Counted from the stretch's first letter, positions 35,326 to 39,553 are shown. The stretch: DNA of 39,553 nt from Candidatus Falkowbacteria bacterium (GCA_037134915.1 JBAXLJ010000005.1:1-39553); one strand, 5' to 3'. Program-made: numbers and translations. Notes: a model not told the origin generated them from the letters alone.

Positions 35326-38300
35326 ATGCAGAATAACAGAACTAAGTGGAAAAAGCTGGGGATCGGTCTGATTATTACCAGTGCCATTTTCACTTTTCTA
35401 ATCTTACAAACTAAGGCGGCTGAGCAATCAGATGCTATTGGCGTTAGAGTAATGCCTAACCCTAATCATGATAGTATCGAGAGCTGGTATGCGAAGCAAG
35501 GTTTTAGAGGCTCGCCCCAAAGTCTGATTGTTGATGGTTATGAAGCAATTCGCGACGGCCGAACAGTTTTTGTAAACGCGGCTAATCTAGATACGGTTGG
35601 CAACAAGCTTTACACTAATGTTTATCTAATTTCTTATAATCAAGAATCAGCTCCTAAGACAGTGGATATTTTGGGACAATTAGTTTCTCATTGGAAGTTT
35701 AATAACAATGTCGTGGCACCTGGTCAGTGTTCAATTTCCAATAAGCTTTGCCAGGCTGATTCCGATTGTGCTAAAGATTATATTTGTTCTAACTCGGCCA
35801 CTAGCCCTAGCCAAGGGAAATGTGTCTTAAAAGATAACAAGCAATGCTTAATTGATAGTGACTGCCCAATTAGTCTGTTCTGTGACAGCTTAAAAGCTAA
35901 GTTAACTCGTGATGTTAAGCGTTTAGGTGCGCTTAATCAACTAAAAGATTTAGCTGAAAGTTACAAGGTAATAAACGGCACTTATCCCGGTTTGCAGGCT
36001 GGCACTTATGTTCTGGGTAATAGTATTTCTCTCTGGCCGAGTTGGCAACAAACTCTAGGTCCGCAAATAAAGTTAACCCAACCGGTTATTGATCCGATAA
36101 ATATTTTAGGCTACTGTGCTGGCTATGATGCTACTACTTGTTGGAATAATAATACCAACGAATTTGTGAGTCCTAAACTAGTCTTGCCTTATGGTAGCTA
36201 TGCTTTGATGTACGGAGCCACTTCGAATGGTGTTAATTATAATTTATGTGCTGTTTTTGAATCGAAGAGTGCTGGCATTGATACCGCTGAAGGTAAATTC
36301 ACCGCCAGTTCTTGTGCTGTGGGAGCCGGTTACAGCGGTTCCAACTCTAATACAGCGCCAGTTCTAATTAGTTCTTACACCGACGGCGAGACCGGCAAAG
36401 AATTTAATGGTTATGTCAGAGCTCAAGACACTGAAGGCGATCAAATTTTTTGGAAACTAACCCCATCTTCTGGGGCCTGGTCATCTTGGAGCGCCGCCCC
36501 GGTTTTGCAAGACGCTGGCAGTAATAATCAAAAAAAGATTTATGCCTTAAAGACAGGAGCGCCCGGAGTTTATAAAATGCTTTTAACTTTAAGTGATAGT
36601 CGTGGCGCAGCTAGTAGCACCACTTTAACTTTTAATGTTAGTGCGGCCAATAAACCAGTGATTGAAGCTGATAGCATTGATTACTATGTTGATCCAATCA
36701 ACCCACTTAAATATACTTTTTATATTCAGGGAAGCAATTCAATCCCTGCTATTTCCAATTTTTCTTTTAAGCCTCTTAACGCTGGATTTAACCAAGCGAT
36801 TAACAGTCAGATAACGGGCTATACACCAACTTTAACGATGGTTGGTTTGAATCGCGTTAAAGTTGATTATTCAATTTTAATCTCCCCATCGGCTAAAATT
36901 CCCGTCGACATTACTTTGCCGTATCGTATTTCAGCTACAGTTAACGGTGCGACGGCCACTAAAGATGTTAATCTTAATTTAAAGATAGAGCAGCCTTATT
37001 TAGATTTTGAATGTGAAAATATGGCTCGTTTTGGTAAGCCTTACCAGATAAGCACCACCAATATTCCTCGTTCATGTTTACTTGGTAGCTTAAAGAGCGG
37101 CAACCATAGTTTAACTTATAGCGTTACCAGCACAACTAGTGCCACTAGTTTAATAATCAGAACCGATGCCACTAGCTCCAATGCTTATTTAGAAGCGCCT
37201 TTTATTTCTGGTACAGTCGGTCCTAATGCCATTAGTGTCAAGGCAACTAACGAATACGGAGCGTCTTCAACCAAAATTTTTAATTTAAATATTAATAATT
37301 TTTGTGGTGACGGTATTAAGCAGCAGCCTAACACAGAAGGTCGCGGGGGTTTTTATAATGATGGCAATGAAGCTTGTGATGGTGCCGCGGGGGTAATTAC
37401 AAGTACAATTAGCACTTCTTCGGATTTGCAATACGGTTGCACAACCAACGGTGATTCACCTTATCCTATTCTAAATAATCAAAGCTGCGTCTTTAAACCA
37501 GGTGATAATGGCGGCGGCTATTGTGGAGACGGTCTTTGCCAATTTCAAATTCCGGTCAATGGTCAACCTCAAGCCATGGAAAATTGTTGGAATTGTCAGC
37601 AGGATTGTGGTTCTTGTATCGCGACTATTACTTCTAACGCCGATCAAGAGCATATAGTTTATGCTAATGCGACTCGTCTTTATAAAGAAACTAGTGCGAC
37701 CGCTATCGATACGGCGACTACAACCTTAATTGCTGGCAAAAATGTCTTTGCTTTTTGGAATAGCAATTTAAATGATGCGGGCTATGGTTTAGCTTTTAAA
37801 ATAAACATTGGACCGAGCCCCATGAATAATAATGTTACCGTTACTAGTTTCGCGGAATTTAATGGCAGTAATGTTGGTGTGAAGTGTAGTCCAGCCCCTA
37901 GTTTAGGCGGTGTTTTATCGGCTGTCGACTATGAACCAGCTTCTTTATCGGCTTGGACGACTCCAGGATTTAATGACTCCTCTTGGCTTAGCCCGGCCCT
38001 GATTACGGCCCGAGCCTTGTTTCTCGGCGGCCCCTATATTTGGGATCAAAATACACCTGCTTCCGGTGGCGCTGTTTTCTGTCGTCTTAGTTTTCAATAT
38101 GATCCTTATTCAATGTCGATGTGTACTCGAAACTGTTCCGGAAAAACTTGTGGTCCGGATGGCTGCGGTAATATCTGTGGCTTCTGTGCTAGTGGTCAAA
38201 CTTGCGCCGCTAATGGTACCTGCGCCTGTACACCAATATCTTGCGCAGGACGAACCTGTGGTTCTGATGGTTGCGGCGGCACCTGCGGTGCCGGTGCTTG

Positions 38301-39553
38301 TCCAACTAACTACGAATGTTCAACGGTTTCTGGCACTTGCGTTTTAAAAAATGATTGTGGACTTAGAACTTGTGGCTTAGATAGTTATGGTAACACTTGT
38401 GGTACTTGTAATGGTACTTGTCTAGGCGGCAGTTGTATTCCTAATTCCGATTGTGCTACCAAACAATGTGGTTATGATTCAGTAACCGGCGCTCCTTGCG
38501 GAACTTGTGATCCGACTAAAGTTTGTACCTCGGCTGGCCAATGCGCGTGCGCTGTTGGCACTTGTGGTGCAACTTGCGCTACTTGTCCGACCGGAACTGT
38601 TTGTTCTGGTACTACGGCCACTGATACCTGTATTTGTAGTCCAACTTGTGCCGGCAAAACTTGCGGCGGCGATGATGGCTGTGGCGGAAAATGCACGGTG
38701 GCTAGTTTTGGTACTAATTCTTGTGTCACTTATGGTTTTGATCTAGGGACCTTAACTTGTGTAAACGGCCAAGTTAGTACGGCTGGCTGCTCAAAAACCC
38801 CAGTCTGTAAGCCAACTACTACTTGCGCCACAGCCGGCATGGTCTGTGGAACTTTTGTGGATGATTGTGGAAATTCTATTCAATGTGGTGGCTGTGATGA
38901 TAATAATATTTGTACCACCGACGCCTGCGGTGCTGGCGGAAAATGCTCCTTCACGATTAACTCTAATAAAGTAAGTTGTAGTTCTCCTTATGGTACTTGT
39001 TCAATTTCCGGTCAGTATTCTTGCGGGGCCAATGGTCTTTTAGGCACAACTTGTAATCCTTTAACTGATCCCGTGACAACTTATTGCGCTGGTAAAGCTT
39101 GTGGCTTAGATGCTTGTGGTAATATTTGCGGTCCGGGTTGTGCCAGCGGTCAAACTTGCAACGGTGGCGTTTGTACAACAGCTGTTTGTACGCCTCAATG
39201 TACTGGAAAAAATTGTGGTTCCGATGGTTGTGGTGGTTACTGTGGTTCAAATGGCGGCGCCTGCACAGGAACTAATACTTGTTCGGCCTCAGGGGTTTGT
39301 ACGGCCCCTATTTGTACGCCTCAATGTACTGGAAAAAATTGTGGTTCCGATGGTTGTGGCGGCTACTGTGGTTCAAATGGCGGCGGCTGTGCCTCTGGTC
39401 AAACTTGCAACACTTCCGGTGTCTGTGTGTCTACTTGTACACCTAGTTGTACTGGAAAAAATTGTGGTTCCGATGGTTGTGGTGGCACCTGTGGAACAAA
39501 TGCAGGTAGTTGTGCCGCTGGTCAAACTTGCAACACTTCCGGTGTCTGTGTGT
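35326..39553 (+). CDS. Giant Cys-rich surface protein, 3'-partial (at least 1409 aa), NOT in the supplied ORF track. It has an N-terminal signal/anchor, Ig/He_PIG-like repeats, CGDG...CDG repeats, a jelly-roll-like region and a terminal CxGKxCGxDGCGGxCG repeat array
   Basis: Manual frame-1 translation from ATG 35326 (MQNNRTKWKKLGIGLIITSAIFTFLILQTKAAEQ...) found no stop. The whole reading frame was read through, and codon phase was re-checked row by row at about 18 of the 60-nt rows. The start is 27 nt after the upstream stop, on the same strand. All track ORFs in this span are short and either off-frame or antisense. Confidence 0.85.
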   Translation, partial: MQNNRTKWKKLGIGLIITSAIFTFLILQTKAAEQSDAIGVRVMPNPNHDSIESWYAKQGFRGSPQSLIVDGYEAIRDGRTVFVNAANLDTVGNKLYTNVYLISYNQESAPKTVDILGQLVSHWKFNNNVVAPGQCSISNKLCQADSDCAKDYICSNSATSPSQGKCVLKDNKQCLIDSDCPISLFCDSLKAKLTRDVKRLGALNQLKDLAESYKVINGTYPGLQAGTYVLGNSISLWPSWQQTLGPQIKLTQPVIDPINILGYCAGYDATTCWNNNTNEFVSPKLVLPYGSYALMYGATSNGVNYNLCAVFESKSAGIDTAEGKFTASSCAVGAGYSGSNSNTAPVLISSYTDGETGKEFNGYVRAQDTEGDQIFWKLTPSSGAWSSWSAAPVLQDAGSNNQKKIYALKTGAPGVYKMLLTLSDSRGAASSTTLTFNVSAANKPVIEADSIDYYVDPINPLKYTFYIQGSNSIPAISNFSFKPLNAGFNQAINSQITGYTPTLTMVGLNRVKVDYSILISPSAKIPVDITLPYRISATVNGATATKDVNLNLKIEQPYLDFECENMARFGKPYQISTTNIPRSCLLGSLKSGNHSLTYSVTSTTSATSLIIRTDATSSNAYLEAPFISGTVGPNAISVKATNEYGASSTKIFNLNINNFCGDGIKQQPNTEGRGGFYNDGNEACDGAAGVITSTISTSSDLQYGCTTNGDSPYPILNNQSCVFKPGDNGGGYCGDGLCQFQIPVNGQPQAMENCWNCQQDCGSCIATITSNADQEHIVYANATRLYKETSATAIDTATTTLIAGKNVFAFWNSNLNDAGYGLAFKINIGPSPMNNNVTVTSFAEFNGSNVGVKCSPAPSLGGVLSAVDYEPASLSAWTTPGFNDSSWLSPALITARALFLGGPYIWDQNTPASGGAVFCRLSFQYDPYSMSMCTRNCSGKTCGPDGCGNICGFCASGQTCAANGTCACTPISCAGRTCGSDGCGGTCGAGACPTNYECSTVSGTCVLKNDCGLRTCGLDSYGNTCGTCNGTCLGGSCIPNSDCATKQCGYDSVTGAPCGTCDPTKVCTSAGQCACAVGTCGATCATCPTGTVCSGTTATDTCICSPTCAGKTCGGDDGCGGKCTVASFGTNSCVTYGFDLGTLTCVNGQVSTAGCSKTPVCKPTTTCATAGMVCGTFVDDCGNSIQCGGCDDNNICTTDACGAGGKCSFTINSNKVSCSSPYGTCSISGQYSCGANGLLGTTCNPLTDPVTTYCAGKACGLDACGNICGPGCASGQTCNGGVCTTAVCTPQCTGKNCGSDGCGGYCGSNGGACTGTNTCSASGVCTAPICTPQCTGKNCGSDGCGGYCGSNGGGCASGQTCNTSGVCVSTCTPSCTGKNCGSDGCGGTCGTNAGSCAAGQTCNTSGVCV
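38119..39553 (+). repeat. Coding array of about 10 Cys/Gly-rich modules (about 38-42 aa each, consensus C-x-G-K/R-x-C-G-x-D-G-C-G-G-x-C-G). The last three copies form 123-126-bp near-identical DNA repeats that run off the window
   Basis: tttgtacgcctcaatgtactggaaaaaattgtggttccgatggttgtgg occurs at 39185 and 39311 (126-nt period), with a variant at about 39434. ggtcaaacttgcaacacttccggtgtctgtgtgt occurs at 39397 and again at 39520 (123-nt period), where the window ends. Confidence 0.9.

Follow-up and report, generated by a model that had tools for sequence, protein, structure and literature searches.

The last 4.2 kb of a 39,553-nt stretch of Candidatus Falkowbacteria DNA (GCA_037134915.1 JBAXLJ010000005.1:1-39553, referred to as the window) raise the question of whether this region is devoid of genes, as the list of open reading frames (ORFs) suggests, or whether it harbors a large gene that leaves the contig before reaching its stop codon and, if so, what its product might do. 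Beyond position 35298, the list contains only three short ORFs, 38066-38347 on the plus strand as well as 38472-38729 and 38963-39250 on the minus strand. By contrast, the first-pass annotation had placed a gene of more than 4.2 kb there, starting at ATG 35326. Our analysis demonstrates that a real gene of a Candidatus Falkowbacteria-type (Patescibacteria) bacterium is present at 35326-39553, represented by its 5' 4.2 kb. The encoded protein (the target protein) has a modular extracellular architecture with a conserved base and a hypervariable tip. We assign a probability of about 0.6 to the interpretation that it is a secreted glycan-binding adhesin, which acts as attachment or host-recognition protein of a conserved surface cluster.

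A gene that runs off the contig

35326-39553, plus strand: 3'-truncated coding sequence (1409 codons, no stop, homologues)
39182-39553, plus strand: tandem repeat of 123 nt (41 amino acids) in three copies, ending exactly on the last base of the window

Translation and a script-based check revealed that frame 1 is open on the plus strand from ATG 35326 to 39553. It comprises 1409 codons and one spare base, and no in-frame stop is present between 35326 and 39552 (35326 mod 3 = 1), while the other five frames of this segment contain 66 to 166 stops each. From the base composition, a probability of approximately 2e-36 was calculated for 1409 stop-free codons occurring by chance. Since the closest in-frame stop on the 5' side is located at 35311-35313, ATG 35326 is the first possible start codon, and homologues begin at the equivalent position. 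According to its documentation, the ORF lister leaves out ORFs running off either end. The gap over the last 4.2 kb is thus an artefact of the tool, and about 11% of the contig appeared non-coding owing to the edge-open gene. Together with the strong conservation in other genomes, these data bear out the earlier claim that a true gene was missed here. That the frame is open by mere chance, or is what remains of a pseudogene within repetitive DNA, is so improbable as to be negligible. The frame is incomplete and its 3' end repetitive, but the calculated chance probability, homologues which at 40-67% identity keep invariant Cys, Trp and Gly positions, and confident structure models all speak against this explanation, which is already refuted by the conservation data.

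The first-pass annotation had also assumed that the true C-terminus lies beyond the window. This agrees with the frame being open at the edge, and a probable continuation was found. When the last 160 residues were used as query, P0253 was retrieved, a protein of 266 residues without initiator methionine, encoded on a contig of 116,010 bp. Its residues 1-31 match target residues 1379-1409 exactly and are followed by one further near-identical repeat unit, and between its residues 125-264 and the tail module of the family member P0024, an identity of 39% was found (E 2e-23). In a cluster look-up, P0253 and the window protein were both NCBI singletons. Judged from these sequence matches, P0253 is probably the C-terminus of the target and would supply the remaining 235 residues, giving a protein of 1644 residues (1409 - 31 + 266). 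It ends with ...CTWSIQNGLCQP, without an anchor. An exact 73-nt scan of metagenome contigs for the continuation as DNA gave no match. The probable cause of the contig break is failure of the assembler in the near-identical 123-nt tandem repeat, as a near-duplicate repeat unit would break a de Bruijn assembly. As a matter of annotation, the gene itself is ordinary, namely a partial gene at a contig end, and the lesson is a routine one: edge-open genes should be called, and contig ends in tandem repeats conceal long surface-protein genes. It is the family and the gene cluster that are uncharacterised.

Domain organisation and conservation of the protein

35326-35418, plus strand: Sec-type signal peptide, residues 1-31 (KWKK n-region, hydrophobic core of 17 residues, QTKA↓AEQ site)
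35419-36330, plus strand: family-defining N-terminal module, residues 32-335 (AlphaFold2 model, invariant residues, 61-87% identity to the closest orthologue)
36352-37299, plus strand: three tandem Ig-like (PKD/He_PIG/cadherin-like) domains, residues 343-441, 444-555 and 556-658 (AlphaFold2, Foldseek)
37300-37620, plus strand: invariant Cys-rich 'CGDG' module, residues 659-765 (FCGDG...E.CDG; YCGDG.C...EN..NC..DCG.C)
37621-38115, plus strand: predicted carbohydrate-binding domain like CBM67 and the Pleurotus ostreatus lectin (POL), residues 766-930 (profile against PDB)
38116-39553, plus strand: Cys/Gly-rich repeat region, residues 931-1409 (479 residues, 86 Cys)

The protein belongs to an unnamed family of secreted 'SDAIAVR-PNPNH' proteins of Falkowbacteria/Patescibacteria, the invariant residues of which were judged across 46 members. 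It possesses the N-terminal module with all invariant positions (D36, R41, P44, N45, W54 and others, including eight Cys at 135-186). With residues 1-960 as query, at least 400 homologous proteins were found, the best of them 62-67% identical and most sharing 40-50% identity across about 79% of the query. Throughout, these proteins are labelled 'hypothetical protein' or nearly so, and where an organism is named, the source is Candidatus Falkowbacteria or a metagenome-assembled genome (MAG) of the 'Patescibacteria group' or Parcubacteria. An exhaustive profile search of 1.84 billion representatives yielded 1039 clusters (50% identity) with E <= 1e-30; with E <= 1e-3, the number rose to 5363. 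Many of them begin only at profile position ~165 and hence lack the first N-terminal subdomain. In a scan of species-representative genomes, relatives were detected in 223 genomes; the family occurs in nearly every genome sampled from the lineage of the ultrasmall Falkowbacteria, in single copy. It is a family that is uncharacterised though already sequenced, and the target adds a further member to the large group of modular, adhesin-like proteins on bacterial surfaces.

Conservation is distributed unevenly along the protein. Coverage mapping of 119 relatives revealed that residues 31-760 are common to 118 of them, while residues 766-930 and the Cys repeats are common to about one third. Compared to the closest orthologue (locus L006), identity amounts to 87% in the first N-terminal subdomain, 61-67% in the remainder of the N-terminal module, 54-69% in the Ig domains, 71% in the CGDG module, 45% in the lectin domain and only 14% in the Cys/Gly tail. 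The housekeeping copies of the same locus are 95% identical (RelA compared with that of the window, ClpP with that of locus L001). The C-terminal tails of the relatives consist of wholly different modules such as extra lectin copies, other Cys-rich arrays, CarboxypepD_reg or a right-handed beta-helix. Relatives like P0002, P0006, P0010, P0031 (GCA_003489845.1) and P0104 (GCA_942492765.1) share with the target the signal peptide, the N-terminal module, the three Ig domains and the CGDG module, with 40-67% identity over residues 31-760, and have the same gene neighbourhood. What separates the target from them is its C-terminal region, which comprises one CBM67-like domain and an unusually long Cys/Gly array. 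Its length of at least 1409 and probably about 1644 residues also differs from the 900-1460 residues of most family members.

The hydrophobic segment at the N-terminus had been noticed before and was regarded as a plausible anchor. The segment itself stands, but the anchor role needs revision, as the core is followed by a conserved AxA-type site (QTKA↓AEQ). Core and site recur across the 46 homologues, and a cleaved Sec signal peptide is the more likely assignment from the sequence. It is the only hydrophobic segment of the target, which is accordingly predicted to be exported by the Sec signal peptide and to have no other membrane segment. Complete homologues and P0253 likewise end without a hydrophobic segment, and no sorting signal (LPXTG), SLH or wall-binding domain was detected by Pfam scans.

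The N-terminal module is composed of a beta subdomain (residues 36-130), a disulfide-knot insert (131-186) with eight invariant Cys (135-186), and a helix-plus-sheet subdomain (187-335). Its AlphaFold2 model is confident (pLDDT 88.9, pTM 0.87), and a comparison with the PDB by Foldseek revealed no significant fold match (top E 0.29), nor was there a meaningful match in a viral structure library (top E 0.034). A PR-10/PYL/SciW-like fold was considered and discarded since the respective values (E 0.29-0.9, TM < 0.2) are not meaningful. A pseudopilin-like fold of residues 187-335, prompted by the motif RD.KR...L...Y...NG.YP, proved to be unsupported as well. For these residues, neither the Foldseek matches of the confident model nor the PDB profile matches included a pilin or pseudopilin; the Pfam model T2SSG did not match the target and weakly matched two of 15 relatives (E 0.013). 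Type IV pilin genes, sought in 85 related loci for a comparison profile, were not found. In two relatives (P0047 and P0050), the helix-sheet subdomain contains an insertion of about 150 residues (...HRLWIETTN...IRIQWSNDW...) that looks like an added domain.

Pfam and NCBIfam searches with the whole protein and six sub-regions at E <= 10 gave only sub-threshold matches to Dickkopf_N in the Cys knots and weak Ig models. The Ig-like repeats reported by the first-pass annotation are well founded, though. AlphaFold2 modelled residues 343-658 as three beta-sandwich domains with a pLDDT of 85-95, and Foldseek matched them to cadherin, protocadherin and Ig arrays at E ~1e-11. On the sequence level, matches are weak and of the PKD type (Big_9, PKD and He_PIG at E 0.36-0.85, below the Pfam gathering score), while PF05345 is recorded for many homologues.

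The adjoining CGDG module, which was poorly modelled (pLDDT 40-55), contains the invariant residues C660, G661, D662, E682, C684, D685, C733, G734, D735, C738, E752, C757, D760 and C761. It had been likened to the myxobacterial CGDG..E.CDDGN type. This holds true for the motif, as CGDG...E.CD is invariant among the 46 family members and the CGDG...E.CD(G) signature of the Myxococcus cysteine-rich repeat (TIGR02232 / PF13948 DUF4215) is present at 660-685, but not for a match to the family models: the CGDG module (659-765) did not match any Pfam or NCBIfam model at E <= 10, and the tail and P0253 gave no hit to the repeat models at this threshold either, in libraries which we take to include PF13948 and TIGR02232. 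Moreover, CGDG and E.CD lie much farther apart in the target (~20 residues) than in the Myxococcus repeat. On the other hand, a Myxococcus-type unit, CGDG(V)...EECDG, is present in P0253, and the tail repeat of the target has relatives in Myxococcota.

The assignment of residues 766-930 as a predicted lectin-family domain of the CBM67/POL type is based on a profile built from 14 copies, which matched POL (6T0Q/6T1D/6KBJ) in the PDB at E 3e-15 and the CBM67 region (residues 172-288) of 3W5M, the alpha-L-rhamnosidase SaRha78A of Streptomyces avermitilis, at E 9e-5. Both POL and CBM67 form a beta-jelly-roll that binds sugar, in the case of CBM67 in a Ca-dependent manner (PMC11512411). The motifs 'AD(N/D)', 'GxN' and 'W...(F/Y)(N/D)DSxW' are shared by the target, the SaRha78A CBM67 and POL. 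However, the target domain is a module of a bacterial secreted multidomain protein, whereas its counterparts come from a glycosidase and a fungal lectin; it is bracketed by an additional Cys pair, and it has Gln instead of Asn/Asp at the second metal/sugar-ligand position. In known members, the dyad of Ca2+/sugar ligands is Asp-Asn (3W5M) or Asp-Asp (POL, Shictin). 'SADN' of 3W5M aligns with NADQ in the target, so the first Asp is retained while the second ligand position is Gln. The first-pass annotation had recognized the Ig and Cys repeats of the protein but overlooked this CBM67-like domain and the conserved N-terminal module.

The terminal Cys/Gly array described earlier was recovered as residues 931-1409, with 18% Cys and 19% Gly. 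Its repeats follow the unit C-x-P-x-C-x-G-K-x-CG-x-DGCGG-x-CG...GQTC...G-x-C. The core of this unit, CxGKxCGxDGCGGxCG, has no Pfam model and also occurs in unannotated proteins (P0249-P0368) of Myxococcota, Peregrinibacteria, a Pacearchaeota archaeon and a eukaryotic transcriptome. This seems to be a disulfide-rich repeat of wide distribution that has so far escaped description.

The gene cluster and the proposed function of the target protein

26156-28849, plus strand: first upstream cluster gene, 897 residues (signal peptide, VirB2-like T4SS_pilin two-helix hairpin, Ig-like ectodomain)
28855-35298, plus strand: second upstream cluster gene, 2147 residues (signal peptide, T4SS_pilin hairpin, TIG/Big_5/fn3 ectodomain)

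The two genes preceding the target both contain a T4SS_pilin domain (PF18895; E 8e-11 and 3e-6), whose hairpin is located at about residues 55-125; by Pfam, this hairpin is absent from the target. The three large genes are separated by gaps of 5 nt and, before the target ATG, 27 nt. A scan of 35000-35500 revealed neither a terminator nor a promoter-like site on the plus strand between the second gene and the target, which is probably co-transcribed with the two T4SS_pilin-domain genes. For the ORF of 2147 residues, the listed start codon is a TTG, but translation may in truth begin nine codons further on, at an ATG (MLSKFKRLILF..., ~28879) located before the signal peptide; the gap after the 897-residue gene would then widen from 5 to about 29 nt.

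Synteny was studied at three loci with annotated neighbours and by a tblastn survey of 85 loci, in which many misses are due to loci cut by contig ends. The order of genes is as follows:

RelA/SpoT, minus strand: 64 of 85 loci
T4SS_pilin-domain protein of ~890 residues: 69 of 85 loci
T4SS_pilin-domain protein of ~2000 residues: 79 of 85 loci
Target protein: 85 of 85 loci
Small protein, directly after the target in order: not counted across the 85 loci
TSP3-repeat membrane protein of ~260 residues: 70 of 85 loci
Membrane protein of ~345 residues: 71 of 85 loci
ClpP, minus strand: 67 of 85 loci
SecD: 59 of 85 loci

The window holds the upstream half of this cluster, the downstream half being situated past the contig end. 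At locus L001 (14414-16737) and its equivalents, the downstream genes encode a single-TM protein of about 90 residues and membrane proteins of 269 and 341 residues. The latter two contain thrombospondin-type-3 repeats (Ca-binding DxDxDG) and are kept in about 70 of the 85 loci. Dozens of MAG records carrying the cluster are titled 'uncultured Gammaproteobacteria bacterium' (L006, L008-L010, L017 and many more), and single carrier records are titled Bacillota, Balneolaceae and Saccharimonadales. Since all other named carriers are Patescibacteria-group MAGs, mostly Falkowbacteria, these odd titles look like default or wrong taxonomy labels.

If the target is a glycan-binding adhesin, it may work in the following way. 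After secretion, the conserved N-terminal module would hold the protein at the cell surface, either by docking on the two neighbour proteins anchored by their VirB2-like hairpins or on the wall. The Ig stalk would push the variable lectin and Cys-repeat end outward, and this tip could then bind glycans of a host or partner cell, in line with an episymbiotic lifestyle. Such a function fits what is known of related organisms. Cultivated Saccharibacteria bind to their hosts in a manner that depends on glycans of the cell wall and is inhibited by rhamnose, and a role as adhesins has been proposed for lectin-like proteins (PMC11623550). For bacteria of the candidate phyla radiation (CPR), large Cys-rich exported proteins were proposed to mediate attachment (PMC4736985). 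The CPR proteins, found in Peribacteria, resemble the target in that they are large, possess a signal peptide, are very rich in Cys and vary between strains; they show weak similarity to Myxococcus Cys-rich repeats. However, they belong to a different phylum and the likeness is one of general features, while the target family has its own N-terminal module and a fixed cluster. Similarly, the surface proteins PilX1 and PilX2 of Saccharibacteria, which likewise belong to Patescibacteria, end in a lectin-like domain and have been proposed to recognise host cell-wall glycans (PMC11623550), but they are type IV pilins with prepilin signal peptides, whereas the target carries a signal peptide of the Sec type, lacks a pilin domain and has a lectin of a different fold family.

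Several points weigh against the adhesin function, which is a prediction from computation. Docking of the N-terminal module to the neighbours is deduced solely from synteny and the conservation gradient, and the module matches nothing known. In the lectin domain, A-D-Q of the target takes the place of A-D-N in CBM67 and of D-D in POL, so that binding of sugar or Ca is not assured. The join to P0253 was made by a protein match only, and the number of units within the tandem repeat is uncertain. Finally, a single-copy gene that is universal in its lineage and lies among housekeeping genes would also suit a structural envelope protein.

This last explanation, a protein of an S-layer or wall-associated lattice that is anchored by its conserved N-terminus and exposes the variable C-terminus as its fast-evolving face, is unlikely but deserves consideration. 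S-layer proteins typically have a conserved anchoring end and a variable exposed end. Essentially all genomes of the lineage carry the target gene once, its place between relA and clpP/secDF/ftsAZ is constant, and the Foldseek matches of the Ig region include the EA1 S-layer protein (rank 45, among many Ig arrays). However, neither SLH nor any other known S-layer or wall-binding domain was found by the Pfam/NCBIfam scans, and a C-terminal architecture that is swapped wholesale among species suits ligand binding better than lattice packing. A Cys content of 7.9%, as determined for the target, and a lectin domain are atypical of S-layer proteins, too. By its linkage, the target might instead be a tip or accessory subunit of a filament made from the two upstream VirB2-like proteins, comparable to VirB5 or a minor-pilin tip adhesin, which we consider improbable. 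The genes are tightly linked and probably co-transcribed, and Patescibacteria commonly possess VirB2-like pilin genes and arrays, with the arrays having been essential in one cultivated species (PMC12102498, a study in which the cluster and the target protein are not described). The pseudopilin-like motif of the helix subdomain (RD.KR...L...Y....G.YP) and the weak T2SSG matches among the relatives point in the same direction. But the pilin-domain neighbours comprise 900-2100 residues and are not polymerising pilins of about 100 residues, and VirB4, VirB6 or other type IV secretion machinery was absent among the genes called in the window and in the 10-kb flanks of three related loci. Furthermore, the class III prepilin signal peptide G↓F(T/S)L(I/L)E is absent from the target, which carries the Sec-type peptide with its AxA site, and neither Foldseek nor PDB profiles identified a pilin or pseudopilin.

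The conserved N-terminus and hypervariable C-terminus are also reminiscent of polymorphic toxins, in which a trafficking region precedes a variable effector. A toxin or secreted enzyme is nevertheless very improbable and was rejected, since no toxin or catalytic domain was detected in the target or in the tails of its homologues, where lectin, Cys-repeat, CarboxypepD_reg and beta-helix modules prevail, and since the downstream genes encode conserved TSP3 membrane proteins and not variable immunity cassettes. The glycan-binding adhesin is the reading we prefer. A more far-reaching idea, which is tentative and rather doubtful, is that the whole cluster of five to seven genes represents an undescribed host-attachment apparatus present throughout the Falkowbacteria lineage. 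It would consist of the two giant proteins with VirB2-like hairpins, the secreted target and the two thrombospondin-type-3-repeat membrane proteins; the N-terminal module would be a new docking fold, and swappable lectin/Cys-repeat tips would set the host specificity. With respect to partner recognition and attachment by uncultivated Patescibacteria outside Saccharibacteria, the target family offers a concrete and testable host-recognition candidate. Its ubiquity in the lineage, the fixed cluster with VirB2-domain giants and an N-terminal module without detectable structural relative, the structure of which would be worth solving, make it of interest.

Other genes of the window

The window is a bacterial chromosomal contig with a G+C content of about 38%. 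Besides the cluster, Pfam matches were obtained for GyrA, NDK, RmuC, a Wzy-type ligase, RadC, an M16 peptidase, RuvB, QueA, an intein-containing UvrD/PD-(D/E)XK helicase-nuclease, signal peptidase I, HisRS and RelA/SpoT. The helicase-nuclease gene (15513-19499) encodes an UvrD/AddA-like helicase with a C-terminal PD-(D/E)XK nuclease, and its intein (Intein_splicing/Hint) is located at about residues 265-630 of 1328. The RmuC gene (8990-10114) overlaps, as listed, by 107 nt with an ORF of 346 residues without Pfam match (10008-11048); if the latter started at an internal Met near residue 33, the overlap would shrink to approximately 11 nt. No Pfam match was obtained either for the ORFs 111-2825 (904 residues), 2993-4012 (339 residues), 5454-5927 (157 residues) and 12461-13096 (211 residues). 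The products of 339 and 157 residues have an N-terminal hydrophobic segment, while the one of 904 residues has none and contains almost no Cys. Neither tRNA genes nor Rfam matches were found in the 39.5-kb window. All but three of the large ORFs (>=200 residues) are located on the plus strand, and a positive G-C skew was recorded for every 1-kb segment except one; both observations suggest that the window is a leading-strand segment.

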